Source: Nemertoderma westbladi
Lineage: Eukaryota; Animalia; Xenacoelomorpha
NCBI GenBank assembly: GCA_032718475.1
Contig: JAUCBJ010006927.1
Coordinates: 1 to 57,129 of the forward strand
DNA: 57,129 bases
Direction of reading: 5' to 3'
Below, one piece after another: positions 10,107-42,902 of this stretch; within the stretch, counting starts at the first letter, position 1, and each line of letters starts with the position of its first letter. The notes beneath the pieces were generated by a model. It made no database searches and had not been told where the DNA came from. It worked only from the letters and a program-made list of their open reading frames with translations. Both the position numbers and the translations under genes were made by a program.

Positions 10107-10404
10107 ACTGTATTTCTAGTTGATCCGCTTATAAACACTCGGTTGCGTAGTTCGGACAGCTTCGTGTGGGTTGGGTCATCTTGTCAGTTTAAATGGCCTG
10201 AGATGACCCTACCCATTGGGGTCCAGCTTCGCAAACGAACTCGATCGCGAAAACTGCGGGTCTGTGCAAGTTTCTCCTAGCCTTGAGTTTACGCAAAAGA
10301 TTTCGTTGGCTAGTCAGAAACATTGGTTAACCAGATTCAATGTACAATAATATCTCTATAATTGTTGTTACGCACACATAAAGCAGCGCACAGTAGATTA
10401 TTGT

Positions 10405-10934
10405 TGTTAGCTTATTCAATCCCGCCAACACCCCATAAAGTTATTAGCCGATAAGCAATATTGGGAGCCACGAGATTGGGCAATTAACCAACTCGTGCCA
10501 TCCCAATAAGAATGGGAAGGAAGCACACAATAGAGGGTCAGGGGCCAAACCCCTAACCCAGAGAGAACAGGTGGAGTGAACGGGAATACTCCATGGGGCG
10601 CCAACAAGGGTATTAACCAATAAGAGGGGGGAATGGCATCGATTGAGTAGCAGTAAGGCCACCGTGCAATATAACCAATAACCTATTAATCAGTGATTCA
10701 GTTATCTCAGTGCAGCAGTGCTAGCGTAGGGTACAGCCAATTAGTTTAGTTAGGGGATCACGGGACTTTAGTTACCGTATCCCGCCTTGTACACATTCAC
10801 AATATATCTATATCCTGTAACCTCTTATTATACACCGAACTTCAGAACTCAATATTTCACTCTTATACACGGCGGGGACGCGTGGACTAAATACCACATC
10901 GGATAAATCGGGATCCCTCCTGGATCCCGTCACA
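10405..10934 (+). repeat. 5' LTR (530 bp)
   Basis: Matches 21494-21705 plus 23166-23483 with one substitution seen by eye (ccatgg vs ccacgg). Starts TGTTAG, ends GTCACA. Hairpin cgggatcc/ggatcccg near the 3' end. Confidence 0.95.
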
Positions 10935-11049
10935 GTAACTAAAACGGTGTTGCTTCCCCAGCTAAACTCAGTAACTAAAGACGAGCTGCCGCCCCAGTTA
11001 AACACAAAGAACTCCACCCTAGCTAGCCGAACCATCAGCCACAAACGAG

Positions 11050-14000
11050 ATGAGTGAGTCGGGCGAGACACCACCGCGGACCCCGGACGAAGACCTAACG
11101 ATCCGCGAGGCCGCGACCAAACGATACAGGCCCACGACGCCGGAGCCATCGATAACGGGCGAACCGGAAGCACAGGACGAGGAGGGCCTGGAACCCGAAG
11201 TCGAGCCAAGAGAGAGAGAGAACGAGGTCGAGGGAGAAAGAGACGAGTCGACACGAGACGGAGAACGGCGCGCCGATGTCGCCGGCCAGCTACCGGCCGA
11301 GGGCGACGAGCGGCCCACCGAAACGGCGACGGTGGGGCCGACGGTACGACGCCGGACGCGAAGAGACGGAGGAGAGATTGGTACCGATGTCGCCGGCCAG
11401 CTACAGGCCGAGGGCGACGGACGGCCCACCGGAACGGCGACGGTGGAGCCGCGGGTACGACGTCGAACCCGGAGGGCCGGAGGAGAGGTCGGCGACGAGG
11501 ACGTCGGGGTATCAGAGCGACTTCGACGGGCCTACAACGCGACCCGAAGGATGATAGAGGACGCCAAGAAGGAAGGGGCGAAGGTAGACGAGGTGAGACT
11601 GAGAAAGCGACTAGGTGAGTCGGATAGACACATAAATTACCTAATACGTTTTGGGCAAAGAGAACTAGCCGAAACGAGAGCACACGGGATTGCCGGGGAA
11701 CTGTTTGAACTATGGGAGTGTGGGAGTATGGAACCTAGTGTAGCGTCAGTGTACATAGGGCCATACTTGGTCAATGCCCGGGGAGTAAAACCAGTAGGCT
11801 GGAGGGAACCCGAAGGGGGCGAATCCGAGGTTAACCCCGAGGATTCGGCCTCGTCGGTCGGAGAAAGCTCCGGGAAGCGGGGGGGAATCAGTAGGTCGGG
11901 AAGGCGGGGGAAATCCGTCGTGACCGATAAGTCTGTTACATCCTCCGCGAAAGGAAGAGCGGTGAGAGAGATAGGTGCCGAATATCGCCTCAGCATGGCA
12001 GCGAAAGATCATAGAGAAATCAAGGAACGGCTAGAGGAAGGGAGAGTGCGGTTAGAAAGGGAAACGGCATTGCTTAAAGAAACAGGAGAGAGGGCAGAAA
12101 GGGCTTTGAAAAGCCTAAGGGAGTATGATGAGATAGAGGAAAGGGAGTGTAGGGAGCGTGAGGCGAGAGAGGAAAGGGGGCGCAAGGAGCGTGAGGCAAG
12201 GGAGGAAAGGGAACGCAAGGAGCGTGAGGCGGAACGCAAGGAGCGTGAGGCGAGAATGGAAAAGGAACGCAAGGAGCGTGAGGCGAGAGAGGAAGGGGAA
12301 CGCAAGGAGCGTGAGGCAAGGGAGGAAAGGGAACGCAAGGAGCGTGAGGCAGAACGCAAGGAGCGTGAGGCGAGAGAGGAAAAGGAACGTAAGGAGCGCG
12401 AAGTGAGACGAAGGGAGAGTATTAAGAGTGCTGCAGAGTCGGCCATTAGGGACACCCGGGAGCGTGAGAGAAGAGTGGCAGAGACTGAGGGAGAAAACAA
12501 GAAAATAGAGAGACAACAGAGTGAGTCTGCGGGAGATGAGATTAAACGGGCGCACGAGTTGCAACTCGTGCGAAGAGCGCCGTCTGAAAGCGGGGCCGGC
12601 TCGGGTATTTTTAGGGAGCCGGGGGCCGTAGAAACATTTATTAATACCCCACTGACAGGGACCGCACGACAGACTCAAGACTGGTGCGACCGTATGAGCG
12701 GGGGGGGTAATAATAATATTGGTACTGTAGACGTTGTTGATATTAATAGTACCGTATGGGATAACACTAATCAAACCTTTATTGCAGGAAATACTTTGCC
12801 TAGTGGTAGTAATTTAAATTTAAATCAGAACAATCCCAATACTAATGTAGAAAATAATCCTAATGTTGATGTAGTTACGCAAAATAATTCAAATAATCAA
12901 AATAATAATCCGAACTCGGACCTACAAAATAATTTAAATAACGCAATTACGCAAAATAATTCAAATAATCAAAATAATAATCCGAACTCGGACCTACAAA
13001 ATAATTTAAATAACGCAATTACGCAAAATAATTCGAATAATTTAAATAATGACCCATGCCCGAATTTACAAAATAACTCAGATAACGTAGTCGCGCAGAA
13101 TAATGCAAATGGTTTTGTCTCAAACGAGCAAATTGATTCCGTTTCTAATATAGGTGCTATTAATGCAAACAAGTCGGGCCTACATAACCAGGGAGCAGAG
13201 GGCCTGGTGGGCCACGTAGTTAGTGGACAGGGAGCAGAGGGCCTGGTAGGCCACGTAGTTAGTAGACAGGGAGCAGAGGGCCTGGTAGGCCACGTAGTTA
13301 GTAGACAGGGAGCAGAGGGCCTGGTAGGCCACGTGGTTGGTAGGGAGGGAGTAGAGGGCCTGGTAGGCCACGCAATAGCAGAGGGAGAGGCGGGGGTGAA
13401 CAGACCCGACCGTGGTAGGGTTGATGTGTCGACTAGAGAGGTATATAATAGCGGGGAAAGAGGTAGCGAAGTTAGATGTAGCGAGTGGGGGGGGGGGGGC
13501 TACGAGGGCCCCACAACAGAGAGTTAGCGGCGAAAAGGGGGGGGCAGAGAGTGTCCCACAGCCGTCAGCGGATAATGCGAGGGCCGAACAAGGTAAACCG
13601 CAACAACCGGCGACGGAAAGTAATAGGGGGATTGCGAGTATCCCCAGCGACGTGCGATCGAGCAGAGAAAGACAGGTTGACGTCGCGGGAGGGCAGACGG
13701 AGCGTCGAGCCCGATCAGAGGAGGAAAGAAGAACAGTGGGGCTTAACCGGGAGGTCGACGAGAGATCTCGTGAGCGGGAATATTCCACTGATAGGAGAAG
13801 AGAGGAAGACAGTAGTAGGAGTATCGCCGCAAACGATAGAAGAGCGAGGACGGACAGCGAGCCGTCGGTAGTCGAGATGAGAACAGAGAGTCAGTGGGGT
13901 CGGACTCCGGGAGATTGCCGTCGCCCCGGAGGGATGCGATCCGGTGAGACGCATTACACGGCGAGAGAGGGGTACGCGATGTACCGGTGCGAAGATGAAA

Positions 14001-14464
14001 ACAGTGGAGAGGGGGGTCGAAGAGAAACTTTCCGACGGAATATACCTACCGATCGAGAATACGGTAGCCGCGGGGAGGATTATTCGAGAAGAATAAACTT
14101 CAATCCCGAGCAACACATGCAGACTGTAGGGCATACTGTAGGTCATACTGCACATACCGTAGGCCATACTGAGAGAGGCAATGTAGGCGATAGGATAGCG
14201 CGGACAACGGGATTAAACCCGGAAGTCGCGGAATACATACCGGCGAGTAGGCCAGAAGCTGATAGGCCTATACCGGTACCAGCACAGCAGTATGACTACA
14301 GCGTGCAGGGACATAACATATACCCAGGGGAAGGGGGAATTATTGCGGATAGGTGCATGGGCCCCAACATATTAACATCAACCCCATTCCCAAACATACC
14401 GGTGTGGGGGGGGGACAGGGTGACATTCCCCCATCACAATATCAACAATATACCCCGATGGTAG
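11050..14464 (+). CDS. Long low-complexity N-terminal Gag extension (ORFs 11050-13527 and 13412-14464, joined across a poly-G tract)
   Basis: BEL-like PEDSASS motif, ERKEREAR coiled-coil repeats, Asn-rich tract and 13-aa GAEGLVGHVVSRQ repeats. The frame changes at G-runs near 13490 and 14410. Confidence 0.65.
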
Positions 14465-16338
14465 CAAGAACAACGAAACCCTTGGACGAAAACAGGTCGT
14501 GTGATACAGACATATGGAGGGGGCCGCTACCCCCGATGACATATCCGAGTCAGAGAATATCAAGAAATAGGACGGACGAACCGCACCAGACAGGGGAAAC
14601 TATACAGCACCCGTCGAATCCATTAGAAGCGCAGGCAATGGGGATGGCCACGTTGATCGATGCGTTGAAAACGAGGATCGAATTACCACCCGTGGAACCG
14701 TTCAAATTCGATGGGAGCAGGCCGGAAGAATACTTACAGTTTCGGCGAATGTATAGTAACGAAATACTAACAAAAAACTTGACGCAGGCGGAGTGCCTAA
14801 AATATCTACAAGTGTACACGGGAGGCCCAGCATACGATATCGTGAGGCAATACCAAGGAATAGAGGGCGGCTTCACGACAGCATGGCGGGCACTGGATAG
14901 GGAATACGGGCACCCGGCCAAGATCATCAGGCAGACGCTGAGAGGCATAACATCGGGTGGCCTACAGGATAACCCCGTTAGCATTAAGACGTTTGCTAAC
15001 AAAGTCGAGAAGGCGCTGATCGTGCTGAAGACGCTAGACGCGCCATACGAGCTCAACGCGTCCAATAACATCACCACGATAGCGCAGGCACTACCGAGTT
15101 GGCTGCGCAACAAATGGAGGAAGATCGCTTTCTCCACCCGAGACAAGAAGGGTGCGGAACCAGGTTTAGAAGAAATGTCAAACTTCTTAAATTACGAGGC
15201 CGAACTAATAACGGACCCAGTCTATAGTGAAGATAGCCTGGGAAAGGGACCAAAGACAGATCATTACAGGCCCAAACCAGAGCACAATACATCGAACGCG
15301 TTACCGAGACTCAGGCAATCATTGCCATATGCAGCGACGCAGGGGACTGCAAGTCCACAGACAAGCGAAGATAAAACAACATCAAGGGACGGACAGGGGA
15401 ACAATAACAACATGAATAAACATAACCTCAGTACGTCCAGTAGGCCAAATCCAGTCAATAAGAATAGTAGGGACTTTGGTACAAATATAACTGCGATACG
15501 CAACGCATTGTATAAAGAGGGCTACGACCCAAAGAGCAAATGCCAGTTACACGCAAATGCGCTTCATAAAACCATGAACTGCAGGTACTGGCAGGCGCTA
15601 CCGAGGCAAGACCAGATAGATTACGCGTCGAGCAATAAAATCTGCTCGCGATGTGTAAAGAGTGGACACAAGGCCAGGGAATGCCAAGAGAAGCCGGTCA
15701 AGTTTGGCCAAAGGAGAGGCCAGACGATGGCAACGAGCACAGTAGGGGCGAAGAGGAGAGGAACAGTGCTACTTGGAGTAGTACCAGTACGAGTGATCGG
15801 GGAAGGCAATCGATCAGTAACAACACTAATGCTGGTTGATAGTGGAGCTGCCTTCACATTAGTTGAGGAATGGGTAGCCGAAGAAATAGGGTTGAGAACG
15901 AGGCCAAGCAGGATGGCGGTGACAACCATCTCTAGCAAAGACGAGATCCTAGAGATGAGGACAGGACGGTGCGCAATTGCAGCAGTGGCACCAGGATGCG
16001 ATTATGGGGCAACAATCGACCCCATCCAAGTAATAGAGTCAATTAACATCAATGCCAGGCGGCCAACCAACATCGAGGTCGAGCAATACAAATTCCTGGA
16101 TAACATTGACTTCTCAATCCCAGACGTGGACGTTAGGAAGGTATCCATCATAGTAGGCATGGACTGCCCGACGGCCCACGAAAGAATGCAAACGGTCTTC
16201 GGCGAAGACAAGCAGAGCGACCCGGTGGCCATATTAACACCATTCGGGTGGACACTGACAGAGGCCCAATTAAGAGTAATATACCATTCCATGTGTCTGA
16301 GAGTTCAGGATGCATGGTGCCAGGAACTGACGAGATAG
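14353..16338 (+). CDS. BEL/Pao Gag core, zinc knuckles and aspartic protease
   Basis: LPPVEPFKFDG..EEYLQF..YLQVYTGGPA..AWRALDREYG is DUF1759-like. Knuckles CQLHANALHKTMNC and CSRCVKSGHKAREC; protease LVDSGA; BEL-typical PVAILTPFGW. Confidence 0.88.
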   Translation: MHGPQHININPIPKHTGVGGGQGDIPPSQYQQYTPMVARTTKPLDENRSCDTDIWRGPLPPMTYPSQRISRNRTDEPHQTGETIQHPSNPLEAQAMGMATLIDALKTRIELPPVEPFKFDGSRPEEYLQFRRMYSNEILTKNLTQAECLKYLQVYTGGPAYDIVRQYQGIEGGFTTAWRALDREYGHPAKIIRQTLRGITSGGLQDNPVSIKTFANKVEKALIVLKTLDAPYELNASNNITTIAQALPSWLRNKWRKIAFSTRDKKGAEPGLEEMSNFLNYEAELITDPVYSEDSLGKGPKTDHYRPKPEHNTSNALPRLRQSLPYAATQGTASPQTSEDKTTSRDGQGNNNNMNKHNLSTSSRPNPVNKNSRDFGTNITAIRNALYKEGYDPKSKCQLHANALHKTMNCRYWQALPRQDQIDYASSNKICSRCVKSGHKARECQEKPVKFGQRRGQTMATSTVGAKRRGTVLLGVVPVRVIGEGNRSVTTLMLVDSGAAFTLVEEWVAEEIGLRTRPSRMAVTTISSKDEILEMRTGRCAIAAVAPGCDYGATIDPIQVIESININARRPTNIEVEQYKFLDNIDFSIPDVDVRKVSIIVGMDCPTAHERMQTVFGEDKQSDPVAILTPFGWTLTEAQLRVIYHSMCLRVQDAWCQELTR

Positions 16339-17141
16339 AGGAGAGGCCAGAGATGGGCAATAGTGGTAGACAGCTAAAAGAAGAAGCAACACCAAGAGAG
16401 TGGGCGGAGGAGAATGGTATGGATGCAGAAGATCTAGAGACGATGGGTTGGAACAAGGGTCCCAGCAAGTATCGGTATGGAGATGGAGAGGAGCGGACGG
16501 TGGAGTGTCGGGAGGACAAACCGGAGAAGTGTCCGGTGGAGTGTCCAGAGGAGCGTCCGGAAGAGACGCCGGTCCGGTTGAGAGGCATACCGACAAGGGG
16601 GAAGCCGAGTAAGAATACAAGATGGAAAGGGAGAAGATGTGAGACGATGAGACCAGGGGCAGAGAAGCCCATGAATAAACATATGGTGGACAAAGGAGCC
16701 GGGAGAGTAGGAGGCGTGCAGCGTACGCACGCGGAACTGACAGAGTGCGAGGGGGCATTACATGCGCAGACATCGTGTATACCGAAGGACGAACGGGGGT
16801 CGTTGAAGCCTTTAATGCCAGCACACATATTAAGGGGGAGGCCAGCAGAGGTGACATCTAAGATTAAGGAGAAGAACAGGGGCGGCATTATACCGCCGGG
16901 TGACACGTTGAAGGGTGGCACTTTGCCGCCAAGGGACGACCACGAGATCAGAAACATAAATAACAGACAGCATTTGCCAAAACAGGAGAAAAGACCACCT
17001 ATCGAATTGACAAGAAGAGCGGAGCGAAGAATTAGAGAACCTATAGGGGGGCAGTGGGAGAGTTGCCTGCTGGAGGAATCACCCCTTGGGTCGCTGAGTT
17101 GTCCAACAGGTTGGACTGGGATGGAAGAGTTAGATCCGTAA
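16248..17141 (+). CDS. Unknown tail of about 290 aa, probably continuing gag-pro after a 2-nt slip (GWTLT-GPI); no RT motifs
   Basis: Restoring GWTLTGPI needs a frame change near 16261. No YxDD or other pol motif follows. Confidence 0.45.
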   Translation: MDTDRGPIKSNIPFHVSESSGCMVPGTDEIEERPEMGNSGRQLKEEATPREWAEENGMDAEDLETMGWNKGPSKYRYGDGEERTVECREDKPEKCPVECPEERPEETPVRLRGIPTRGKPSKNTRWKGRRCETMRPGAEKPMNKHMVDKGAGRVGGVQRTHAELTECEGALHAQTSCIPKDERGSLKPLMPAHILRGRPAEVTSKIKEKNRGGIIPPGDTLKGGTLPPRDDHEIRNINNRQHLPKQEKRPPIELTRRAERRIREPIGGQWESCLLEESPLGSLSCPTGWTGMEELDP

Positions 17142-17296
17142 AAGGTGCGGGCAGAGGTGTTACCTGTCTCTTAGAAGGAGCACCTTAGAGCGGAGTTAGT
17201 GTGGAGTTTAGTCGTCCAAGTTTTGGACTGAGGGGGGTGGGATTGAGGGCGAGACGCCCTTCCCACACAAAATAAAAATAAAATAAAATAAAATAA

Positions 17297-17733
17297 GAGT
17301 TAGTCAGTTAGTTAGTAGGTACGTAGTACCAATAGTTAGAGTTAGAGTTAGAGGGTACGTAGTACCGATAGTTAGAGAGTTAGCAGGTACGTAGTACCTA
17401 GTTAGAGTTAGAGTTAGAGGGTACGTAGTACCGATAGTTAGAGTTAGTAGGTACGTAATACCTAGTCAGAGTTAGAGTTAGAGGGTAGGTAGTACCGATA
17501 GAGTTAGAGTTAGTAGGTACGTAGTACCTAGTTAGAGTTAGAGTTAGAGGGTACGTAGTACCGATAGTTAGAGTTAGTAGGTACGTAGTACCTAGTTAGA
17601 GTTAGAGTTAGAGGGTACGTAGTACCGATAGTTAGAGAGTTAGTAGGTACGTAGTACCTAGTTAGAGTTAGAGTTAGTAGGTACGTGGTACCTAGCTAGA
17701 GTTAGAGTTAGGGGGTACGTAGTACCATTAGTT
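17297..17733 (+). repeat. Tandem array of about 13 GGTAC-GTA-GTACC hairpins spaced by GTTAGA repeats
   Basis: ggtacgtagtacc recurs about every 30-36 bp in alternating ..ccta and ..ccgata units, with a dimer period near 64 bp. Confidence 0.9.
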
Positions 17734-18241
17734 AGAGAGAGAGAGTAAGAGGTAAAAGGGGTAAAATAGGATATAGATATTAGTTAGTAGTAAGTAGAGT
17801 TAGTAGCGAGAGGGGGGCATATGAGTGCAGCTGGATAAATCGTGTGGCCACACGACGCATACTGCTGTACTGCATAGGCCCACTGAGTAGGCCAGAATAT
17901 GGATCAGAGAGAGAATAGAATAAATCCATAGGCAGTAGTAAGTAGTAGGACAGTAGAATCAAAGCAAAATAAAATAAATAAATAGAATAGGGCTAAAAAT
18001 CGGAAAATAGTGGTAACACAAGGAAAGTCGTTCTAGAACATAATAAAAGTAACGGACAGAAATTGTAAATTAGGCTGATTTACTAGCTCCGAAATTAATT
18101 AGGTAAAACTTAGCTTGAAAGGCGCAATTAAGTAGAAAGTAGGCCATTATCGAACTGTACGAAACATCCTAAATACTTCACTCATCTGTATTGCGCCTTG
18201 GTAAGGCACCACCCTACAGGTGAGCGAGTGTAGTGTTCGGA

Positions 18242-20773
18242 ATGGCGAGTAAGCTGATCAGGAAGAGAAAGGCGGAGTCAGGAGGAAAGGAAATATTGGT
18301 GGATTTCACCGAAAGACACCCGGAGGAGAAGACGAGAGGATACTACGAGAGGTTGGAAAGGGGTCACGCGGCACGAGCGCTGCAGGATCACTTCCGGGAG
18401 GCGCACGAACAGCGGTTGGTCGGGACCTACGGGACGCCGTCGCTGGACAACGCGATCTTCCAACACTTCCACTACGTGGTGAAAGGAGACGAGGCGAAGT
18501 TCGGGATTCCGAAGTATCCGAGGGAATCGCCGAGGAAGGACTGGAAAAGATTCATAGAGTCCGTCAACAGAGGAGGATATATGATCCTAGATGACGAGGG
18601 AACCGTGGAAGACGAAGCGGGTTCGAGACGAGGAACGGCAGGGTCGGCCAGGACCATACTCTTGCATTTGGCAGCGCCAAATGGGGACATCTTCTTATTC
18701 GACCTAGGGACGTATGGGAAGAAGGACGGGCCGAAATTAGACCGACTGCCGAAAGCGGTACAAGTCTTAGTAAGAGAGAAGTCGACGACGAAAGTGGGAT
18801 CGGCGATTCGCGAGGACGCGGAGAGGATCATCGGTCCGGACGCCACCAACCTCCTGGATATGCAGAAAGTCTTTATGGCTATGACGGCACCGGATGGATT
18901 GGGGGTGGTCGAGAACTCAGGCCAATGCGGGGCGGTGGCGATGGGCCAACTATTGGGGCTCGTATGCCACAAACCAATGGATTGGGGGAAGTTTAGGGAA
19001 GAATACGGAGCAGAACTAGCGAACTCGCTGAAGTGGGGAGCGAGACCGGGAAAGCAGGAGGTATATCAGTTTCGCAGAGGAGCGATAAAGGTATATCAGA
19101 AGCGATATATCCTGCAGGAGGACTGGATGATGATAAGTTTGCTTAACTTATTCATGACCGTAGTTATCGAAAGGGAACCAGGGGCATTTCTGTTATCGGG
19201 ATCACCCCTAAGCTACAGGAGAGCCTTTAAGACGGCCTTTGACGGTCTGGTAGACCACCCGGGGCTGAAGGGCGAGTCGGTGTACTACAACAGCCGACAT
19301 CTGGTAGATGGGGAGACAGATACACCGTATCAGAGATGGGAGCAGCTAGAGATGGATAGACGGGAAGCAAAGCGACTGGAAGAAGTCTCTAGACGGGAGA
19401 GGATAGAAGCAGAGGAGAGGGAAGAGGAGGCCAGAACACAGAGTTATGGCTTCGAGGAACAGGCGGGTCTAGACGAGCTTCATTGGACTTCGTCAGGGAG
19501 TTCGGGGGAGTCTCTAGGACGAGAATTGGGATGGACGGTGGGATCGCCGAAACAGTCGACGTTGGGGTTGCAAACGATGCCCATACCAGCGGGCGCCGAG
19601 GGCGACCAACCGCCAAGGAAGTTAAGGGAGCTAGAGGGATGGAGAGCTACGGGCGAGAGCCAAGGCGGGAAGGGACATAGTGGATCCATCGGGATACCGG
19701 GATTGGAGACACTACCAGAGGAGGACGACGACGACGAGTTCGGAGAGATGCCGCCCATCGAAAGGATAGGCCACTCGGACACAGACTGGGTTGGCGGAAG
19801 GGTGGTGACGGCCAGTGGGGCGAGGGCCTTCTGGAACAGATCCGGCAAGCGGACCTGGGTGCACGAGGAGCCGGCGATGGATTTCGCGGGGAGCACCATC
19901 AGGTTGGGCGAGCAACCGGGAACGGCACCACGGATAGTATTCGGGGAGACGATGCCCGAGAGGGGCGGAGAGATAGACGTAAACAGGGAGAGCAACGTAG
20001 AGAAGTTCGCCTACCAGCGACTCCATAGACCGCGGAGATCGCTTGGGACGAAGGACGAGGTGGGACGGGAGACATTGGTACTCGGCTGCGACTACTGTGG
20101 GAGACAGACCCATCAGGAAAGCAGCTGCCTATACCGGTTCCAACGGGGAACCTTTTGTCTCTACTGTAGAGAACCAAGTCACAGGATGGGGGCGTGTCCA
20201 CGGTTGCATAACCGATGTCCAAAGTGCCACTTTCGGGGACACTACGGACGCGAGTGCGACTGGATGAGCGACGAGGAGAAGTTCACGAGGTTCGAGGAGT
20301 GGGCCGACGTCGGGGCCATGACGCGCCAGCGCATGAAGGCCCAAGAGTTCAAGTGGGGTTTCTTCCTCATAAACCAGGAGACCCACATGGAAATCATAAA
20401 GCGAAGGTTACCGTTTACCTATCAAGAGGTAGCTACGGCGGCATCGTTCGCCGGAGTTATGAACACGCAACGGTACCTGGACAGGTGGACACCAGAGAAC
20501 CGGAGGGAGTTTAGGGATTTCTTGGCGGAACACGTACCAAAGGCAATGAAAATGATCCTATGGGACGCCACACGAGGGAGACAACCAGGCCATTCTGAGG
20601 GGCCACCGGCGAAGCGGTATCGGGCATTAATAACACCAGCGCCCAAGGAGCCGACGACCGGGATCAGCAAGGAAGTGGCGGCAAAGGTCCGGAAGCAGAA
20701 AGCGGATGATGCCAGAGGAGCGGTGATAACCAAGAAACGGGCCAGGGAAGAGGACGTGAGGAGGAACAGATAG
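18242..20773 (+). CDS. 843-aa protein: DEDDy (WRN/EXD/RNase D-like) 3'-5' exonuclease domain plus three CCHC zinc knuckles
   Basis: ExoI ILDDEG (near 18590); LLHLAA..IFLFDL..LPKAVQVLV..KVGSAIRED (ExoII); LLDMQ; QKRYILQED (ExoIII-like). Knuckles CDYCGRQTHQESSC, CLYCREPSHRMGAC and CPKCHFRGHYGREC at 20087-20257. Uninterrupted ORF with basic NLS-like termini. Confidence 0.8.
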   Translation: MASKLIRKRKAESGGKEILVDFTERHPEEKTRGYYERLERGHAARALQDHFREAHEQRLVGTYGTPSLDNAIFQHFHYVVKGDEAKFGIPKYPRESPRKDWKRFIESVNRGGYMILDDEGTVEDEAGSRRGTAGSARTILLHLAAPNGDIFLFDLGTYGKKDGPKLDRLPKAVQVLVREKSTTKVGSAIREDAERIIGPDATNLLDMQKVFMAMTAPDGLGVVENSGQCGAVAMGQLLGLVCHKPMDWGKFREEYGAELANSLKWGARPGKQEVYQFRRGAIKVYQKRYILQEDWMMISLLNLFMTVVIEREPGAFLLSGSPLSYRRAFKTAFDGLVDHPGLKGESVYYNSRHLVDGETDTPYQRWEQLEMDRREAKRLEEVSRRERIEAEEREEEARTQSYGFEEQAGLDELHWTSSGSSGESLGRELGWTVGSPKQSTLGLQTMPIPAGAEGDQPPRKLRELEGWRATGESQGGKGHSGSIGIPGLETLPEEDDDDEFGEMPPIERIGHSDTDWVGGRVVTASGARAFWNRSGKRTWVHEEPAMDFAGSTIRLGEQPGTAPRIVFGETMPERGGEIDVNRESNVEKFAYQRLHRPRRSLGTKDEVGRETLVLGCDYCGRQTHQESSCLYRFQRGTFCLYCREPSHRMGACPRLHNRCPKCHFRGHYGRECDWMSDEEKFTRFEEWADVGAMTRQRMKAQEFKWGFFLINQETHMEIIKRRLPFTYQEVATAASFAGVMNTQRYLDRWTPENRREFRDFLAEHVPKAMKMILWDATRGRQPGHSEGPPAKRYRALITPAPKEPTTGISKEVAAKVRKQKADDARGAVITKKRAREEDVRRNR

Positions 20774-21455
20774 GTTCCCGGAGACGAGGGAACGAGGGAG
20801 TGAGACTGAGACTGGAAAGTGGTGCGCCTGGAAGGCGCCGCATGGAACGTACGAACTATTAAATACAAATTTATTTAATTAATGCAAATAACCATATAAG
20901 TGCAATTCGTATGTACGTACGTAGTAATTAGCAGTAAAATACATACGTTTGGAGTAAGTACTATAGTCATACAACCTTTCTCAACTAGCTAGTGGGACTG
21001 GGGGGAATAACTGACTATGGCACTATGGACGAGACAACTGACAATTTCATACTTCTCGAGTGCGACGGCACGAGAGGGGGGGGAGGTTCGTCAGGAGAGA
21101 TAAAACAGCAGAAGTGAGGTTGAGGGACGCAGTGATAGAGTGGAGTGCAAAGAGAGTGCGGACGCGATTCTAGAGTGTGGGGGGGGAGAAGAAGAGGCTG
21201 AGTAGGGACGAGGAGGTCCGAGTGTGAGAGAGTTAGGGTGAGAGTGAAGGTGAGATAGGGCGAAAGTGTTGGGGAAACAAAAATCGCGTGAAGAGGTGAG
21301 CGCGATCGGCCCGACATGAGGCGCCAGGCACACAGGGTAGCGTTATCATACCCATAGGGGGCGGCCTGGAAAGCCGGCTCCTAGAGAAAAGAATTCCACC
21401 CCACACCCGATACTAGATCGGGATCCAGCGGGATTGTAACGCACTTTTTTGGTTG

Positions 21456-21493
21456 ATGCTATCTTCTTACCGGGAAGATAGCATGGGGGGGAG
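21456..21493 (+). promoter_or_regulatory. 11-bp hairpin followed by the polypurine tract of the LTR element
   Basis: atgctatcttc-ttaccgg-gaagatagcat, then gggggggag directly before the TGT of the 3' LTR. Confidence 0.8.
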
Positions 21494-23483
21494 TGTTAGC
21501 TTATTCAATCCCGCCAACACCCCATAAAGTTATTAGCCGATAAGCAATATTGGGAGCCACGAGATTGGGCAATTAACCAACTCGTGCCATCCCAATAAGA
21601 ATGGGAAGGAAGCACACAATAGAGGGTCAGGGGCCAAACCCCTAACCCAGAGAGAACAGGTGGAGTGAACGGGAATACTCCACGGGGCGCCAACAAGGGT
21701 ATTAACCCTTTAAGTACCGATACCACAAATTTCTGAACATATGGTGCGCCGACCAAAATACCACCGGCAACAAATGGTTTTCACAGCATATATTTTGACA
21801 TAGAATCGGCAATATTGTACAACAATTATATACAATAGATATATAATATATTTTATATATATATATATATATTTTTTATATATATATATAATATAATATA
21901 ATATATATTTTCGTAAAACAATGTAAACAATTATTGAAGATTTATTAATAATACGTTTGATAACATTATTATATTACAAACCGACATTTTTGTGCCATTC
22001 ACCAGCACAACCAATACATAAACAGGGTTTATATGGACAATCTGGGCAATAACACCCTGTAAGTACATTTTTACCTTTTGCATAGCAAACATGACAACGA
22101 TATCTAGGCTTATGAACCTTACTAGTTGGGGGTAGAAGTTTTATTGAATGCAGCGTCGAATTGTCGGAATCTTGTGAAGTAGATTGTTGGTCTGTCAGGT
22201 AAGATGTTGCAGTACGCTTCAATGGGCTCGCACACTTGATACCAGTCAACCACAGGACTGCTTTCTTTATAAATGGAACCAATCGTTCTTTGCTGTTCTT
22301 TTCCCGTTTATAAAGAAGAAATGCATTGATTAGTAAACGCATCATAAAACTGAAACCAATTTTTTTAAACCATGCGTGGCTTTTTCTAACCGGATTGTAA
22401 TACGCAATAAGTTGGTCTTGTACATCTACGCCTCCCATTTTCTTATTGTATTGGTCAATGGTCGTTGGCTTATCATAATCGATAGTATCACCTCCCCGAA
22501 CAATGCGAGATTTAGGAGTCAGATCAGCGTCGTCGACAGTCGATAAAATCGATTCCTCCTACCCACCCAACCGTTCCAGTAAAAGGAATAAAGTGGTTCG
22601 TAGCATAGGCGTCGGTTCCTGCCTCCACAAAGTTCCACGTCCAAGTACTGGTGCTGGTATTACTACTGTAGAATCGCTACTGTCACTCTCGCTTCCACTG
22701 CTACTCTCATCATCGTCGGTTTCACCTTTATCTCCTCCGGATTCGCTTCCATCGCCACCAGTTTCACTTTCGTCCGATAGCACCTCATCCTCACTTTCCC
22801 GGTGAAAAACATAATACTTGACAGGGTTCTTCCTCCTAACAGGCCTACTCATCCTAACTAGGCCTACTTAAAAAATTAATGAAAACACCCCACAATTCAG
22901 CAATTACTGAAGTAGAAGAGTGTCAGTACTGCAGTTGTAGGTGTGTTCAGGTGTTGTACCGGTTCATGAGCAGGAACATGACATCCAGACTTTATTTAGG
23001 TATCAAATGAAAGCCTAATGCGCGGGCTATTCGAAATGAGTGATTATTTATGCGCTGTACCTACCTATGGACCCGTAGTAACACATTAATGTCATGGATC
23101 AACATCTGATCCATGGCGCACTATGTCATGGATCACCTGTTGATCCATGGGACTCAAAGGGTTAACCAATAAGAGGGGGGAATGGCATCGATTGAGTAGC
23201 AGTAAGGCCACCGTGCAATATAACCAATAACCTATTAATCAGTGATTCAGTTATCTCAGTGCAGCAGTGCTAGCGTAGGGTACAGCCAATTAGTTTAGTT
23301 AGGGGATCACGGGACTTTAGTTACCGTATCCCGCCTTGTACACATTCACAATATATCTATATCCTGTAACCTCTTATTATACACCGAACTTCAGAACTCA
23401 ATATTTCACTCTTATACACGGCGGGGACGCGTGGACTAAATACCACATCGGATAAATCGGGATCCCTCCTGGATCCCGTCACA
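21494..23483 (+). repeat. 3' LTR interrupted by a piggyBac insertion
   Basis: The 212-bp and 318-bp segments reconstitute the 530-bp LTR around a duplicated TTAA. Confidence 0.95.
21706..23161 (-). mobile_element. Internally deleted piggyBac transposon (1456 bp)
   Basis: TTAA TSD at 21702-21705 and 23162-23165; imperfect TIRs ccctttaagtacc/gggactcaaaggg. The acidic N-terminus (22559-22852) is joined to the C-terminus MGGVDVQDQ..WFKK and a Cys-rich domain (21974-22438). Most of the catalytic core is missing. Confidence 0.92.
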
Positions 23484-23599
23484 ATTGTAATGTACTACAA
23501 TAGTGGGAGCGGCGTTGCCTATCTACGTATCAGACCCATAACAGATTGCCGATATCAATGTGGCACGAAAAACTTTCAGTTTCACATCTGTACAAATTG

Positions 23600-27395: not shown

Positions 27396-28392
27396 TACAG
27401 ATCCTTGCTAAGGAAATACCACTATCCTTAGCAAGTGATAATTAGGGGTCAACTCCATATTGACCCCAAACACCGGGTTCATAAGAGGCCACATTTCACA
27501 AAATCAGCCGTCAGAAACACTCGGCCTTGTAGATGGCAGCCCCCTGGCCCGCTATCTTGGCTCAGTTTCTCAGCAGTCGGGCTGGACTGTTCCTATACTC
27601 TCCTTTACTTCGCCTAGTATCGGTGGGGCTTAGGAGCGTGGCTAGTTCCCGCTGAGAACCGAGCATGTGGCCAACCAGCCCTCTAGCTAAAACTTGCGCA
27701 CTCTGCCCGCAGACTCATTGGAGCGACCTTTGGACAAACCTAAGTCGGAGGATAAAGTAGCAGCTAACTTTCGGCGTCCAATTCGGTCGCACCCCCGTTT
27801 GGACACAGAAGGTAACCTGGTGTTTGCACTATTGCCAAGTTTATTACAACTGTTTTAGAAACCTATTTTCATTTTAGACCTGTTAGACTGTTAGACATTT
27901 TAGACTGTTAGTATTTAAGTCCAGAAACGACTAAAATACTATATTTTGTGTATTATACTTTTGGTTACAATTATATGGATTGTATAATTTTTCGATGTTA
28001 TACTTTGGTTCCTAACGGACCCAAACCACCCCTCATCCGGTTTCTGTTTTTCCCTCTTCCCGGAGGTTTTTCTATGGTGTTACGTACCGTAGGTAGTATG
28101 ATAATAAGTAAGACAGGGCAATAACCAGCAATATAATGTCTATATTATTGTTATTTATAGATAGGCATAAAGTTATTGGAATATAAGCAATAATCTTATA
28201 TATGTAATCCGGTTCATTACGGTCAGACGGTACCAACCTACCGGTACTGCAATATTACCCTAGGCTAATAAGTAGTTAATTATATATCTAAATATATTCA
28301 GTTTAAATTTACCGCCCTTTTATATTAAGGGGCTAGGCCCTATAATTGATCCTATACCAAGTCCTTCTTTTTTTTTTTTTTTTTTTAATGAG

Positions 28393-31300
28393 TTAGTTAC
28401 TGCCACCAAAGTGATGATAGTTTAAACGATTTGGTATCTTTCGTTCACGTTGTGGTGAATCCTTTTGTACTTTATGGTCCATTATCGTTGACTCTCCCTT
28501 CTCTCCAGATAGTGGTATGGATGGAGATGCCTTTATATCATTTGGTGTTCTTAGGTCTTTCAGCACTTGTCTTAGGTGTCTTCTATTACGCCATAACGAA
28601 TGTCCATTTTCAAATCGAAGTAGATAGCAACGTTTGTTTTGTTCGCTGCGTATAACTTCAGCCAAACGATCCCAATGTTTGGTCTTTGGGTTCTGTACCC
28701 GAACAAGGTCGCCCTTTGGGATTTCTACGAGTGGGGTTGTGGAGTAGTCGTAATAAACTTTTCTCTTTTGGTCATTTATGATGCGTTTTTCATTCGCAAT
28801 GTCAAATTGTGATGAATGGTCTGGGATGTATGATTCCTTATTAGAGGGAACTCGGGAATGCAATGGTCTTCCAAATATTCGTTGGGCTGGTGATAAACCA
28901 TCTGCCCGTGGACCATTTCGCAACTCTAACAATCCACTGAGGAAATCATTGCTGTTGATATCACCACCACTTTTGGCTAGAAGGCCCTTAACCATCTTGA
29001 CAATCATTTCCGCATGTCCATTGCTTTGTGGATGGTAAGGAGATGAAGGCCTCCACACAACACCCCATTCCTTGAGGAACTGTTGAGTTAAATAAGCCTT
29101 ATATTGTGGTCCTCTATCGCTGCGTAAAATATTTGGAATACCCATAAGAGCAAAATTATATCGAAGGATGGAGACAACCTCTGAAGCAGTAGGATCATGA
29201 TCGAATTTATCTACTAGAGGATACCCTGACCATCTATCCGCATATACTAAGTAATGTCGTCCTCCATATTTAAATAGGTCCAGGTAGCCATTTCGAATGG
29301 TCTAGTGGGCATAGCTTGTTCTTGGATAAGAGGTTCTGGTGGATTTGAGGAATGATACCGTTGGCATTGTTCACACAAATCTAAAGTTGTCTTAATGTTG
29401 TTCGAAATACCGGGCCAATATACTGCCTGACGGGCTCGACGTTGAGTCTTCTGAATTCCTTGATGACTGACATGCAGTCGTTTTAGGACATCCTTTATGG
29501 CATTGGGAGGTATGATTATACGTGGGCCCCGGAACACAAGTGAACCCGAACTTGTTTTATCCACTGAGAGCTCCTCAGAAATTTTACTAAATTGACGGAT
29601 ATAAGAATTAGAGTTATCCGCAACTGACCCATTTATGACTGCCTCTACTAAGGCCCTGTAATCCTTACAGATGTTCGCTTGGGCTCTAAGAGAATCCAAT
29701 ATGAGATCTGGAACAACATCGGATATTGCTTGTTGGATTACGTTCACATGGATCTGAGATTCATGATTATGAACTGGGGTCATGTCATCTTCTTCTGGAT
29801 CACTGACTGGGGCTCTCGATAATGCGTCAGGAATCGCATGTTTCGATCCTTTCCTCCATGACACAGTAAAATTGTATGTTGCAAGTTTAGCACGATAAGC
29901 CTGTACCTTGGGATTCTCGATTTCAGCCATACTGTATTTATTGAATAATGATTCAAGGGGTTTGTGGTCTGTAATAACTGTGTAGGATGCCATTCCTGCT
30001 AAGTATACATGGCATTTCTGTGTGGCCCACAATATGGCCAATGCTTCAAGTTCTATAATGGCATATCGAGATTCCACATCCTTCAAAAAACGACTTCCTG
30101 CCTGTATAAGGCGCCAGTGTTCATCTTGTTTTTGAAGTAGTGCATATCCCAATCCATGTAGTTTACTAGCATCAGTTTCTAACATTGTCTCTGCCTGGGG
30201 GTCATACATTCCAAGTACTGGTGGGGATACCAAGGCTTGTTTAGTTGCTATAAATGCTTTATCATTAGAAGGATTCCAAACAAATTCATATTTTGTGGAC
30301 AAGAGTTCTCTAAGAGGTCTTGCTGCACTTGAAACTTCTGATGAAAATGACCCAAGTTGATTAACCAATCCCATGAATGAACGAAGGTCCGTTCTAGTGG
30401 TTGGGGTTGGGAAATCTGCAATTGCTGAAAGTTTTTTGCCATCTGCCCCAATTGAGCCATGTGTAATCTCATAACCCACAAAGGTAATCTTCTCTGCACA
30501 TAGGATGGACTTTACTTTGTTTACCGTAAAACCGTGCCGTGCGCATCTTTCTAAAACTTCACAGACTAATCGAATAAGGTCACGAAAGTTGGAATGACCC
30601 ATCCCTATATCATCTACTACTTTGTGGACTTTTAAGTCGTCCATTGCAGCGTCACCCCTCTGAGAGAACGAGTCTCCTGTTGAGATAAACCCCATTGGGC
30701 TACGAAGGAATTTATGTCTACCCCATGGGGTGATAAATGTCGTTAGTTCCTGGCTGTCAGCATGGAGGGGCATTTGCCAATACCCTTTAGTGAGGTCTAT
30801 CTTCGCAAAATATCGGTCATTCCTATCAAACCCTGATACTGCCTCTGTTGGGGTCTTTGTAGGGTATGTTGATCGGATAACCTGACCATTCAGTTTTGTC
30901 AGATCAACTGTAAATCGGATCTCTGATGATCCGGGTTTAGGAGCGATGACAATGGGGTGACACCATGTTGTAGGTTTGTCACCCAGGGGTTCAACTATAC
31001 CCCGTTTTACCATATAATCCAGAGCTTCCTTGGCCTTCTCTCGGTATGCATATGGGATCTGTCGTGCTGAATGAATCGCATATGGAACAGCATCCTTTTT
31101 GAGTGTAATTTTCATTGGCTCTCCTACTACCGGTCCACACATAGGCTTCAACGTATCTGTGTCATCAAAAACTACTGCATACTTTATATGAAGCATTTCT
31201 GATACCTCCCTAAATGTTTTCGATGTTGGTTCATTGGGTAATGTAGTTATCCAGGTTTCTCTTTCAGACCATATTTCTTTATCTAGTTTGCGTGGTTCCA

Positions 31301-33050
31301 ATTTTAATGATTTGGATTCATCTATTATATTGAAACCCGACTCATTGTTATTATAATTAAAAGTCAAAGAATTTATATCAGCAGTTTCTTCTGCCGTAGC
31401 CTGGACTGACTCAGACCCAATCTTACTCCCATTACCAAAAATGGTTTCGTTAGGAGTAGGTTTAGTTTTTTGTAGTGGTTGTGGAAAGTCGTGGTTAACA
31501 ATTGCGAATCCCTTGCATGCTTCCAAAGATAAATAGAAACCTTCAATATTATAACAAACAACTATTGTGTCTTGTACACTGTAACCATTTGCCGATAATG
31601 CTGCCTGAAATGTCCCAGCTTGAATGAGGGGCTTATTATCAATGGCTAAAATCTCCAGTCTAAGAGGTGGCTGAAGATAAATCCTTTCAGCCAATCCTGA
31701 GTGTTTAAAATCAGATATCCCCATAACTGTAACCCCTGCCCAAGTATCGGGCCAAGCTGGGTGAGCATACCTCTCACCATTTTCTATGGTAATTGTTACA
31801 GGTAAATAGTCAGAGGTCCGTTTCATAGAAGCTATAGTAAGAGAATCTAAATGACTTACGTTGAGCCTCCTTGGATTTTTGCGGCATACCGTTCCAAAGT
31901 GTCCTTTTTTATTACAAATTGTGCATATTGCTTTCCGGGCTGGGCAGTTATGTTGGCCCGATCGATATTCTCCGCAATGTGAGCAAACTGCTTTTCCAGA
32001 AGAAAAGTTCCCCACAGGACCTGCTGTTTGGCGTGTTTTGTACGCTGTAGGTTTGTTTGCATATACCCCGCAGCTATTATAATTTGACCCACCTGAATCC
32101 TGACCAATCTGGTGTGCCCCTTTTCGAGATGTTTCCAGATTTGTAAGGAATGTTCGTGCTGCAGCAAAATTTGGTGGGTCTTTTGCCATTAGCTTAGCTC
32201 GATCCTCGTCGCTTTGAATGGCTTGCACCAGTAATGCTGTATGCAGACGATCTTGTGTTATAGCTGCAGTATCTGCATAGTCCCCTAACTCTACAATTTC
32301 ATTGCAAATATGGACAATAGACTGGTTGTCTTTTTGTCTAACAGCTAACAAGTCTTTCATATCCACATGGCGATTACGTAATTCTCGAAGATGTCGAATT
32401 ATTGTTTCCAATATGTCACTGACATCGCGACCGGTGTTTGCTGGGATACCTAAAGTGTTATGTACAGTGCGGAGGAACCCAGGTGAGCAGCATTCCCATA
32501 AGGCCGCTACCTGTACCGTTCTTGGTCTCTTTCCTAGTTCCATTAAAGCCGCATAATTTTCCCATAACGCTTGCCATGCCTTAAACCCCCGGAAGTCGAT
32601 ATCTTCCTCCAGACTTTGTGGGCGTTTAGCCGAAAAACGTGGCAACTCCTGAGAAATGGGTTGTACGTGGTCTGGTAGTAGAGGGTTAGATATACTCATG
32701 TTAGCTGTAGAGTTATTTATTCCTTGTTGAGTTCGCCGGGCTTCCAGATCCCGTCGAATTCCCCGCACTTTGGCTGTCGCCTTTGACAAACCCATCTCGT
32801 GTTTGTAAAGTTCGGGGTCTGCATCCGTCGACTCGGCCAAAGGATGTGCTATAACCTCATTCTCTGCTGTCTGGTACTTTTCTACCTTAACTTTCCAATC
32901 TTCAACAAGGACTTCCAAGTAATCCGGGTCTTCATCCCAGTCATACTCCTGTATAGCATTATCAAACATGTTTGAGGATCTTGTACAGGCTGATTTATAA
33001 CCTGCTCTTGAAGATTTCAGCTTTGAGACCTCGACACGTGATGCTGACAT
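28393..33050 (-). CDS. Gag-Pol polyprotein with a 1-nt frameshift near 29281 in integrase
   Basis: Knuckle CTICNKKGHFGTVC; protease PDTWA (DTGA mutated); RT KIDLTKGYWQ and VVDD; RNase H ETDAS, ELEALA and TDHKPL; integrase HHCC, SDRGPQY and HPQSNGHAE. Confidence 0.92.
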
Positions 33051-33176
33051 TATGTAACTTACTTTTTGGACTGACCTGGTTTATTTTTGTATAGATTCAG
33101 AAATTATTATTTCCCCTCAATATGTTAGTTATGTTGTTATCGCCTTAGAATTTCATCTTCTAACTGAGGTCAACAA

Positions 33177-33188
33177 CTCGCAGCGCCA
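33177..33188 (-). promoter_or_regulatory. Primer-binding site TGGCGCTGCGAG, probably tRNA-Ser
   Basis: Immediately follows the 5' LTR on the minus strand and resembles the complement of tRNA-Ser 3' ends. Confidence 0.7.
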
Positions 33189-34325
33189 TAGTATGATAAT
33201 AAGTAAGACAGGGCAATAACCAGCAACATAATGTCTATATTATTGTTATTTATAGATAGGCATAAAGTTATTGGAATATAAGCAATAATCTTATATATGT
33301 AATCCGGTTCATTACGGTCAGACGGTACCAACCTACCGGTACTGCAATATTACCCTAGGCTAATAAGTAGTTAATTATATATCTAAATATATTCAGTTTA
33401 AATTTACCGCCCTTATATATTAAGGGGCTAGGCCCTATAATTGATCCTATACCAGTAGGCCTACACTATTTTTTATACCAATGAAGACATTAATAAATGG
33501 AAAATAGAAATCACTGTGATTTAGTACTATCATGAAAGGGTTGAGGAAGTCCGATTATAACAAGTCGTTGACGGACCGTGTTCTATGCGAGTCAGTCTTT
33601 CCGCCGAGGAGAAACCAAAACAGTAAACGAGTGTGTTAAAACTAGGAAATTTTGAGATACTTAAAAAGCCGTTTAGGATCTTATTGTGCTGAAAGGCACG
33701 AGAAATCCTTTACACCACCGCTGCGACGCCCTTGTCTGTAACGTAACTGGTAGCTAGGCGCCAGCAGTCAGTTTGTAACTTTTTAACTGGTAGCCAGGCG
33801 CCTACAGTCTGTCTGTAACTGTTAGCTAGGCGCCAGCAGTCCGTTTGTAACTGGTAGCCAGGCACCAGTTAACCATTAACAAACTGGTTCTCAATCGTCC
33901 ACACTAACATGTATGTGTTTATATTAATATATTTTGTATACCAGTAAGGAGGCATTTATAAAAGGTGGAGGTTATTTTCAACATTGAAAGAGAGAAATAA
34001 ACGAAACGAAACAATGTCCAGCAGTCTGTCTGTGACTGGTAGCTAGGCGCCAGGCAGTCTGTCTATAACTGTTAATCATAAGAATGTAATTTAAAGTGAT
34101 AAATTAACATACAATGGTATCTACACTAAGGTAGTTACTAATACTTGTTCTATAAAGGTTTTAATAATTGCCGCCTTTGATTGCCTTTATGAGACTTTAT
34201 TCATTGCATAAGTAATTGCCTTTGTCAAAAGTGTATAAATAGGAGAATTTTTAGGGCATTAAAACCATGCTCTATCAGAAAATTATCTTAACTTTAGTTA
34301 CAAGTTATTTACAAATACTATAAAA

Positions 34326-36596: not shown

Positions 36597-38104
36597 TAAA
36601 ACTGTAAGTTTTATATAAAATTACTGAATAATTTCAATAGAGTTGCGTTGGAAACTAACTTTTACATTTAATTATAAAATATATAAATAATATTAATATA
36701 ATTATAAAAAATATTAATATATAATATAATTATAAAAAATATTAATATATAATATAATAAATAATATAATATAAATATAATATATATATTATAAACTATA
36801 ATAGTAAATAAAATAAATAAATAAATAAAATAATAAATAGTAGTAAATAGTAGTAAATAATAGAAAATAATAAAAAAATTAATATAATAATAAATATTAA
36901 ATAAAATATTTATATAAATATAAATAAAATATAATAATATATTTGGGTGAAAAGTTAATAATAATTATCTAATACTGTAGTTCCGGATTAAATATCGTTT
37001 TTTACTATGAAATTATTGACTTTAACGTTTTTATTATTTATTTTACAGTTTGAATTCCCAATGAGTTGTAGAAGAGATACTGTACCTCGGCCTACAGTTC
37101 TATATAATTCATTAAACACAACTGATATATGTTACCAGTTTTCAGTATGTGTGATGGTTATGGGTTATATTAGGTTATTGGTTAATGTTTGGTTAACCCC
37201 TTCCAAATATGCTTACTGGTTTATGTTTGGTTAACCCCTTCCATATATCGTGGGTAATCTGGTAAAACCCCTAAGTCGATTTTTGGCCATTTTCAGGTTT
37301 TTGGTGATTTTGGTACCATAGGAATCATATGTCTGTTGATCATTTCCATGACGGTAAATTGTATAATCAATAACAATATAGGCTTGACCATCTTCTGCAA
37401 AAAATGAATGCCTTACTATTGGCATAACCATATCGGAATCAGAAGACATTATTTAATTTATTTTATTGTAAATCAAACAAACAAACAAAGTAAAATTTTT
37501 AAACTAAAACCATTACAAATGATTAATTGTGATTAAAGCAAGATATTATATATAAGATATTTTCAAAAATAATACAGGTCTTAAACTGAAAAAAAATAGC
37601 CTAAATTCGGTTTATTGATTGGTTGATTAACCGGTAGGGAACTACTGTATAAACAAAAAAAATTATTTGGTTCTGCGTAATAATAATAATCACTAATGCT
37701 CGTATACGCCTAGCTGGAACGTGACGGAATCTCATGTATCATACTGGTTGGTTTGTTGATTTGGCGACAGCAGTCGTGGAGTTGGCAATCAATATAATAT
37801 GTGCATGATGCGTGTAGATGGCCACGTCGTTACCATATACAGTATACAGTGGTGGTGGTAACGTGGCAGTGGTGGTAACGTGGTGAAAAGGTGAATAACA
37901 TTAGGGTTAGTCAGTCAGTCGAGTAAGGCGGGCATCGTGAGGTTAGGCTACGCTACGATTGGTTGATGGTAACTGCTGATGGTGACATATGGTGGGGTAA
38001 GGCAGACATCGCGTGGTTAGGCTACGCGTAGGTGAATAAGCAACGATTGGTTGAAGGTAAGGCAACGACGCGAATCAATACTGTTGGTGACAGATGGTCA
38101 TTAA

Positions 38105-42444: not shown

Positions 42445-42902
42445 GTGTTTTGCTGCAGGCCTATGGAAACCGACTATCAGACTGTCAAGGAATCAATAAA
42501 TTTTGAATGTTTTGGCAACGTTTCGCTGACCATTTCGAAAAACATTATCTGCCCACGCTACAACTTCGAACTAAGTGGTTTGCGCAGCAAGAAAACGTCA
42601 GCGCTGGAGACATGGTCCTTATTGTAGATTCAGATCTTCCACGTAAGCGGTGGCAGACAGGTCGTATCATCGAGACTCACATCTCGGATGACGGTTTGGT
42701 GCAATCGGTAGAACTCGTCGTCATGCGACGTAACTTCAAGAAACCGGGAATTGTCTTTGAGACACAGCAGCTCAATCGCCCAGTTGGTCGTTTGTGTTTA
42801 CTGGAAAGAGACAGAGAACTCTCCGGAAACTATGGAAGACAAGATACTCTTCCCACGACCACCTCCCTAATCCAACAAACATCTAGGGACTCCCCAGCTT
42901 AG
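42445..42902 (+). mobile_element. BEL/Pao integrase C-terminal relic (DUF5641-like)
   Basis: FWQRFADHFEKHYLPTLQLRTKW..GDMVLI..PRKRWQTGRI..DDGLV..RPVGRLCLL. Confidence 0.88.

Follow-up and report, generated by a model that had tools for sequence, protein, structure and literature searches.

What primes reverse transcription in an LTR retroelement whose leader offers no site for a tRNA? The question is raised by a BEL/Pao-derived element that occupies positions 10405-23483 of the window, the whole 57,129-nucleotide stretch of Nemertoderma westbladi DNA analysed here (contig JAUCBJ010006927.1). The sequence directly after its 5' LTR is GTAACTAAA; TGG is absent from 10935-11100 and, even if one mismatch is allowed, from offsets -8 to +9. 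AATAAA is absent from the LTR, which has AATATA at 10668 and 10801 instead. The initial annotation of this locus was right about both absences, and it went on to propose that the leader pairs with the element's own LTR and that the element primes itself.

Some primer must have been at work, since the two LTRs differ at just one of 530 positions (10594) and the target-site duplication is intact. The duplicated 5 nt, ATTGT, flank both ends of the element (10400-10404 on the left, 23484-23488 on the right), and the element with its features is described here on the plus strand. The 5' LTR (10405-10934; 530 nt) has TG...CA ends. The 3' LTR (21494-23483) follows a polypurine tract (21485-21493) and is split at a duplicated TTAA by a piggyBac-type insertion (21702-23165, or 21706-23165, 1460 nt, counting one TTAA copy), without which the element measures 11.6 kb. 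The insertion has CCCTT...AAGGG ends and a DDE_Tnp_1_7 remnant; it sits in U3 of the 3' LTR and came after the retroelement. A low-complexity open frame without Pfam family spans 11023-13527 (first ATG at 11050). A strong donor-like GTGAGT is found at 11054, just past this ATG, and a possible splice acceptor near 18220, ahead of an 849-codon frame to which we return below. The frame at 14353-16338 encodes a BEL/Pao-type Gag (DUF1759, Pfam E 3e-11), a zinc knuckle and an aspartyl protease (Pfam E 2e-5). No reverse transcriptase (RT), RNase H or integrase was detected anywhere in the element by Pfam, and the matches of a complete BEL polyprotein, taken as query, are confined to the Gag-protease region. 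Where pol would be, a 334-codon frame (16137-17141) overlaps the Gag-protease end; it has no match in Pfam and none among the 116 BEL loci listed from our control set. Given the near-identical LTRs, ATTGT at both ends, the DUF1759 Gag and protease, and the absence of RT, RNase H and integrase, the element is a young, non-autonomous BEL/Pao derivative.

Two further fragments of its family, both without an LTR, lie in the window at approximately 39.8-41.9 kb and 47.0-49.3 kb. Inverted arms of approximately 1.3 kb (38247-39568 and 45589-46896; 97% identity), with subrepeats of 162-164 nt, lie on either side of fragments of this family and of what remains of a BEL integrase (42513-42746). A neighbouring Ty3/gypsy element on the minus strand (28094-33454) has LTRs of approximately 266 nt without TG...CA ends, a frame break between RNase H and the integrase core, and an ordinary TGG site. 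Three near-identical repeat copies (211-1844, 35447-37270 and 50163-51493) carry an intron-free frame for a fibrinogen C-terminal domain (480-1343, Pfam E 7e-38) and are possibly a mobile unit with a host immune-type domain.

The pairing between leader and LTR falls into two blocks, and here the initial annotation holds in every detail that we checked. The proximal arm, 10767-10775, forms nine Watson-Crick pairs with 10935-10943, an exact complement whose tenth position is unpaired. The last base of the arm precisely faces the first one beyond the LTR (10775:10935), which makes C10775 the predicted 3' end of a primer. Pairing resumes between the distal arm, 10743-10757, and 10955-10968, with 14 bp (13 Watson-Crick and one G-U) and a bulged A10752. 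The leader side is a 36-nt unit (10935-10970) made up of a candidate primer-binding site (10935-10943), a variable middle and the distal block (10955-10968). Its tandem copy, 10971-11006, contains a 10-nt complement of 10766-10775. Comparison of the two units confirms that the blocks were kept while the middle diverged: block 1 is identical at 9/9 positions, the middle at 5/12 and block 2 at 11/13.

Chance is a poor explanation for this arrangement. A complement of at least 9 nt at offset 0 arises in 44/20000 shuffles of the LTR and 56/20000 of R-U5, and 32 of the 8113 other positions tried in the window have one (a chance of approximately 0.3%). The duplex of unit 1 has -30.5 kcal/mol compared with -19.2 +/- 3.1 in shuffles, 2 of 1000 of which match it; for the distal helix taken by itself a match arises in 1 shuffle of 2000, and the fold of 10743-10970 has z = -4.2 (0/150 shuffles). 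Unit 2 alone is weaker, being matched by 81/1000 shuffles, and the predicted pair probability is 0.72 for unit 1 and 0.0 for unit 2. Hence folding predicts unit 1, and not unit 2, as the primer-binding unit in use, and the tandem copy is likely a slipped duplicate of that unit.

A fold need not be a primer. The pairing could serve packaging or translation, or be a relic of an old inverted LTR copy, with no role in priming. The LTR has a 22-nt internal period at 10743-10786 (15/22 identical) that doubles the primer motif, and the element is non-autonomous; both would suit such an origin. It would leave two features to coincidence, namely that the end of the helix falls precisely on the LTR boundary and that the leader blocks are kept while the middle drifts, and we consider it improbable.

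Other predicted structures surround the pairing. Directly behind the predicted primer end, 10776-10791 forms a stem with 10866-10880 (9/2000 shuffles; pair probabilities 0.81-0.96). An 8-bp hairpin in U5 (10909-10929) ends 5 nt before the LTR end; self-priming of Tf1 reportedly requires a U5 stem, to judge from the title of a paper. A possible third helix, a weak one, joins 10720-10732 to 11016-11027 (56/2000 shuffles). The AATATA at 10801-10806 may act as a variant poly(A) signal. Far downstream, AGTTA, which forms the core of the primer arm, recurs 33 times in a tandem repeat at 17298-17800. The repeat has 28 matches to a Musashi-type RNA motif, and it could be a set of protein-binding sites or decoys for the leader.

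Where the RNA begins determines how long a primer would be. The LTR has CCAAT motifs at 10503, 10616, 10675 and 10737. Two arrangements on the plus strand are candidate transcription starts. One (10670-10703) consists of a TATA-like box at 10670 and an Inr-like site that would place A+1 at 10700; such a pair occurs in 211/5000 shuffled LTRs. The other (10741-10774) is an Inr-like site with A+1 at 10743 followed at +28 by a DPE-like element (10770-10774), a pair found in 144/5000 shuffled LTRs. We also considered an unspliced register 10752:10936 and rejected it on folding energy, the 10775:10935 register being better by 15 kcal/mol for RNA that starts at 10743 and by 9 for RNA that starts at 10700.

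The reading that we favour, with a probability of roughly 0.55, is Tf1-like self-priming with an unspliced primer that ends at C10775. If correct, transcription would start at 10743 or at 10700, giving a primer of 33 or 76 nt. The first of these starts is also where the distal helix ends, and in that case one leader unit would hold the primer at both ends. The RNase H of a helper element would cut after C10775, where the primer helix would stack on the 10776-10791:10866-10880 stem, and an autonomous partner would likewise supply the RT. From the primer at C10775 the RT would copy U5 and the remainder of R. The strong-stop DNA would then jump by means of approximately 50 nt of R downstream of the cut, reaching up to a poly(A) site behind the AATATA at 10801.

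The initial annotation had suggested another way of obtaining the same primer end: the leader is bound by the 3' copy of R, and an exonuclease encoded by the element shortens the RNA from its 3' end as far as C10775, so that priming requires no internal cut. This is sterically possible, and pairing with the 5' end brings 16-25 kcal/mol to a 3' R copy that stops at 10775, a gain lowered by the 5' R copy, which can occupy the leader in cis. The candidate enzyme is the 849-codon frame at 18224-20773, which has three CCHC knuckles and an N-terminal region with some resemblance to 3'-5' exonucleases. The resemblance comes from language-model features, not from an alignment: the feature score is 0.92 and 24 of 30 hits are to PF01612, yet the shared features number 160/256, below the 170 typical of true family hits. 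A DFTE motif lies near the start of the frame, to be compared with the acidic motifs Exo I-III of DEDD exonucleases (PF01612). The predicted structure is unusable (pLDDT 32.5), and neither Pfam, PDB nor any of three protein searches gave a match or homolog; a single homolog hit proved to be a repeat artefact. By tblastn the frame has no homolog among the 116 BEL loci listed, which include the complete TGG-less element L062. The trimming proposed in the initial annotation is thus not supported, and we consider it most improbable.

If leader and LTR pair in the living element, other copies should bear traces of it. We aligned contigs of such copies from four runs over 10600-11100; they are too short to join primer and leader letters on one molecule. 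The three records of X6, which we can only guess to be RNA, stop at or before 10743, and this is left out of the argument. The 40 substitutions listed, out of 56, spare 10741-10755, 10760-10787, 10867-10896 and 10909-10943 entirely. In 10700-11049, 8 of the 37 sites listed fall in predicted pairs, as against 140 of 350 positions that are paired (Fisher p 0.011, on 40 of the 56 substitutions). Four of the five sites listed in the leader units (10944, 10981, 10995 and 11004) add a pair or remove the bulge in the unspliced register, two of them with the help of a 1-nt bulge; the fifth, 11006, costs a lone pair past the end of the helix. A diverged copy in run X5 has two of the nine primer-site letters changed, both in a G-U-compatible manner. 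Diverged copies also keep the U5 hairpin in other letters, with loose ends behind 10891 in X2 and behind 10914 and 10915 in X5. Against this, the variants listed at 10730, 10731 and 10759 break predicted pairs; the first two do so in the weak third helix, which also holds variant 11018. The initial annotation had proposed a search for compensatory changes. Among the substitutions listed, natural variants mostly keep or extend the pairing of leader and LTR, and a paired change on both sides of the primer helix was not seen in contigs too short to link both arms. The conservation of 10743 and 10770-10774 could also reflect promoter motifs.

Do relatives of the element lack a tRNA site too? As controls we collected at least 116 BEL/Pao loci from metagenome contigs by means of a degenerate RNase H motif, a choice that biases the sample. 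Among the loci listed, 43 of at least 4500 nt were aligned to themselves, and 23 of these have a flanking repeat. A search of the metagenome contigs with an LTR-end DNA pattern gave 0 matches, and viral contigs scanned by protein and by motif yielded 0 loci. Leaders are readable in 26 of the 116 loci listed, the other 90 being left unassigned. Twenty have TGG within 6 nt of the CA end (11 located from an LTR pair, nine by motif or by eye), and were called on TGG rather than on tRNA identity; six, in five families (L004/L026, L050, L057, L062 and L069), have none. Hence the statement in the initial annotation that BEL/Pao elements normally use tRNA agrees with 20 of 26 readable leaders and with the ICTV profile of Belpaoviridae (PMC8742986), and it overlooks a whole TGG-less group among the loci listed.

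The TGG-less families are not scattered. In a quick tree of RT-RNase H with 33 rows, rooted at the midpoint and built after six of 39 were dropped for short frames, the 17 TGG rows and five TGG-less rows need a single change (support 92; 0/500 shuffles). The element enters this comparison through its Gag-protease, whose best matches among the loci listed are L069 and L062 (tblastn E down to 1.7e-22). It scores 131 bits on a profile of four TGG-less relatives and 82 bits on one of ten TGG elements. In a quick Gag-protease tree, from which 8 of 26 rows were dropped for more than five stops, a branch with 99% SH-aLRT parts it from the ten TGG elements; its own branch is long (1.87; 20% identity). 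The TGG-less families thus seem to group on one side of the tree, together with the Gag-protease of the element.

What the leaders of these relatives match is their own LTR, across a splice junction. Four of the families were tested, with matches of 13, 11, 11 and 12 nt to a GT-AG junction (0, 3, 4 and 6 of 300 shuffles), and an 11-nt junction match was read by eye in L069; in nine TGG elements junction matches do not exceed 8 nt. The matches lie at offsets 0-4 and differ in their letters from family to family, and the introns are canonical GT-AG introns of 107-209 nt. The predicted primer helix dominates the spliced fold in three of the five families, the exceptions being L057 and L069. L004 offers a choice of two candidate donors and of two acceptors, and its sister L029 retains the same exon-2 start and a matching leader. 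L050 has, in addition, a direct 9-nt match at offset 0 (6/300 shuffles) which is a by-product of its splice junction, so that a direct 9-mer of the kind on which our own reading depends can mislead.

Because relatives use splice junctions, we looked for a junction match in the element itself. A transcript that starts upstream of approximately 10640 and loses a 79-nt GC-AG intron (10666-10744) would join the 6 nt of 10660-10665, which pair with leader positions 10944-10949 after this removal only, to 10745-10752, and the joined sequence pairs over 14 nt with 10936-10949. The match, at offset 1, is equalled in 0/1000 shuffles with GT or GC donors, and the added 6 nt together with the donor dinucleotide occur in just 54/20000. 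The helix of the spliced form has a pair probability near 1 and continues into an 11-bp U5 stem, and all five TGG-less families, L050 with its derived 9-mer among them, set a precedent with junction matches of 11-13 nt. The intron itself is a poor one. Its GC donor lacks the usual consensus, whereas the five relatives have GT donors; its acceptor has four AG in the preceding 28 nt and a pyrimidine fraction of 0.41, whereas theirs have 0-1 AG and 0.53-0.76. No GT-AG intron with a leader match of at least 11 nt was found in the LTR of the element, the best GT junction giving 6 nt (124/300 shuffles). The distal helix is significant in the unspliced register (17/2000) and at chance level in the spliced one (979/2000), the U5 stem that follows in the spliced form is marginal (106/2000), leader unit 2 has no junction match, and even in the spliced form the junction fold leads the direct fold by only 1.7-5.8 kcal/mol. 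Finally, among the 40 substitutions listed of 56, the letter that other copies most often have at 10944 is a mismatch to the junction; this variant, which breaks the junction register, makes up 86% of the depth in run X1, contig depths not being read here as copy numbers. A self-primer built by splicing is, in our opinion, unlikely in this element.

The relatives also bear on the suggestion that a host tRNA fragment or another small RNA primes at a site other than TGG, with the LTR match acting as a storage fold. Half-tRNA primers exist in Ty1/copia elements, according to the available part of PMC6317226. In the element, the absence of even a one-mismatch TGG at offsets -8 to +9 speaks against a tRNA, and neither Rfam nor ARAGORN has a relevant match in the region. 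The primer-site letters vary among the TGG-less families, in each case in step with the LTR of the family, a pattern not to be expected of a conserved host RNA. We regard a host primer as very improbable.

Self-priming of some kind therefore appears highly probable to us, on account of the match statistics, the variants in other copies and the TGG-less relatives whose leaders match their own LTRs. In this respect the initial annotation is strengthened. The letters of the primer are less settled than it assumed, since the weak GC-AG junction gives a match of 14 nt; it had missed this match, as it had the LTR start at 10405 and the absence of RT, RNase H and integrase.

We know of other elements that prime themselves. 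Tf1 and Tj1 do so according to the available portions of PMC7175516 and PMC4600332, where the Tf1 RNA pairs by its initial 11 bases and the RNase H cut falls between bases 11 and 12. Like Tf1 and Tf2 of Schizosaccharomyces pombe, Tj1 and the Tf1/sushi-Tcn1 group, as described in the portions available, our element has no tRNA site and a candidate primer-binding site complementary to its own predicted 5' RNA. It differs from the Tf1 group, which is Ty3/gypsy, in its superfamily (a DUF1759 Gag), in its tandem leader unit and in having no RT of its own. Instead of the 11-nt primer of Tf1 it would have one of 33 or 76 nt, with a core match of 9 nt supplemented by a 14-bp distal helix. Hence it may work like Tf1 while standing outside the Tf1 group, to judge from its Gag type and its lack of a Ty3/gypsy (chromovirus) coding region.

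In the accessible part of PMC6317226, Tf1/sushi, Tcn1 and TAR elements are called self-primers by a rule of at least 10 bp of complementarity to the own LTR at offset 0-5. The TAR lineage of plant Ty1/copia (Houba, Osr-1) resembles our element in that self-priming was predicted from sequence alone. Compared with this rule, as given in that part of the source, the element has an exact match of 9 nt in unit 1, one base short, of 10 nt in unit 2 at offset 36, and of 14 nt across the weak GC-AG junction.

The ICTV profile of Belpaoviridae (PMC8742986) describes tRNA-primed elements with an 18-nt site for tRNA-Arg or tRNA-Gly whose replication is poorly understood; in the available text of PMC4580426 a BEL element has a site for tRNA-Tyr. 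The element shares with the profile its LTRs (530 nt, within 0.2-1.2 kb), polypurine tract, and Gag and protease type. It differs in having no 18-nt tRNA site and no RT, RNase H or integrase, in its size of 11.6 kb with the insertion left aside, and in its extra exonuclease-like frame. It thus appears, by sequence, to lack two defining features of the family as profiled, a Pol with RT, RNase H and integrase and a tRNA primer site.

As for precedents within BEL/Pao, primer, PBS, tRNA and exonuclease all go unmentioned in the available part of PMC3118150, by a term search, and the accessible portions of PMC3601003, PMC13524379, PMC3286476, PMC3985635 and PMC11662393 contain nothing on self-priming in this superfamily. 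A wider search, made up mostly of titles and the beginnings of abstracts, with subscription papers, Repbase, GyDB and bioRxiv supplements outside its coverage, turned up no paper on a self-primed or splice-primed BEL/Pao element.

The closest parallels are therefore the TGG-less families themselves. They share with our element the lack of TGG, a leader that matches the own LTR, and a shared side of the trees built on RT-RNase H and on Gag-protease; they differ in that their match lies across a GT-AG junction, whereas the best-supported match of our element is contiguous in DNA. Since the primer of the element looks contiguous and five TGG-less families need splicing, the element is useful for ordering the two states. 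One order can be offered tentatively, as a possibility that we rather doubt: a deep, TGG-less branch of BEL/Pao dropped tRNA priming for a self-primer made by splicing an intron out of the LTR, and the element represents the next step, either with the junction hard-wired in its DNA or with a weak GC-AG intron that switches between two primer registers.

If true, self-priming would have arisen outside Ty3/gypsy and Ty1/copia, and could be gained with, and freed from, the spliceosome. A self-priming branch of BEL/Pao would mean that a mechanism demonstrated for Tf1 alone had a separate origin here. It would also explain why the search for a tRNA site fails in some BEL/Pao elements, and would alter the way in which these are annotated.
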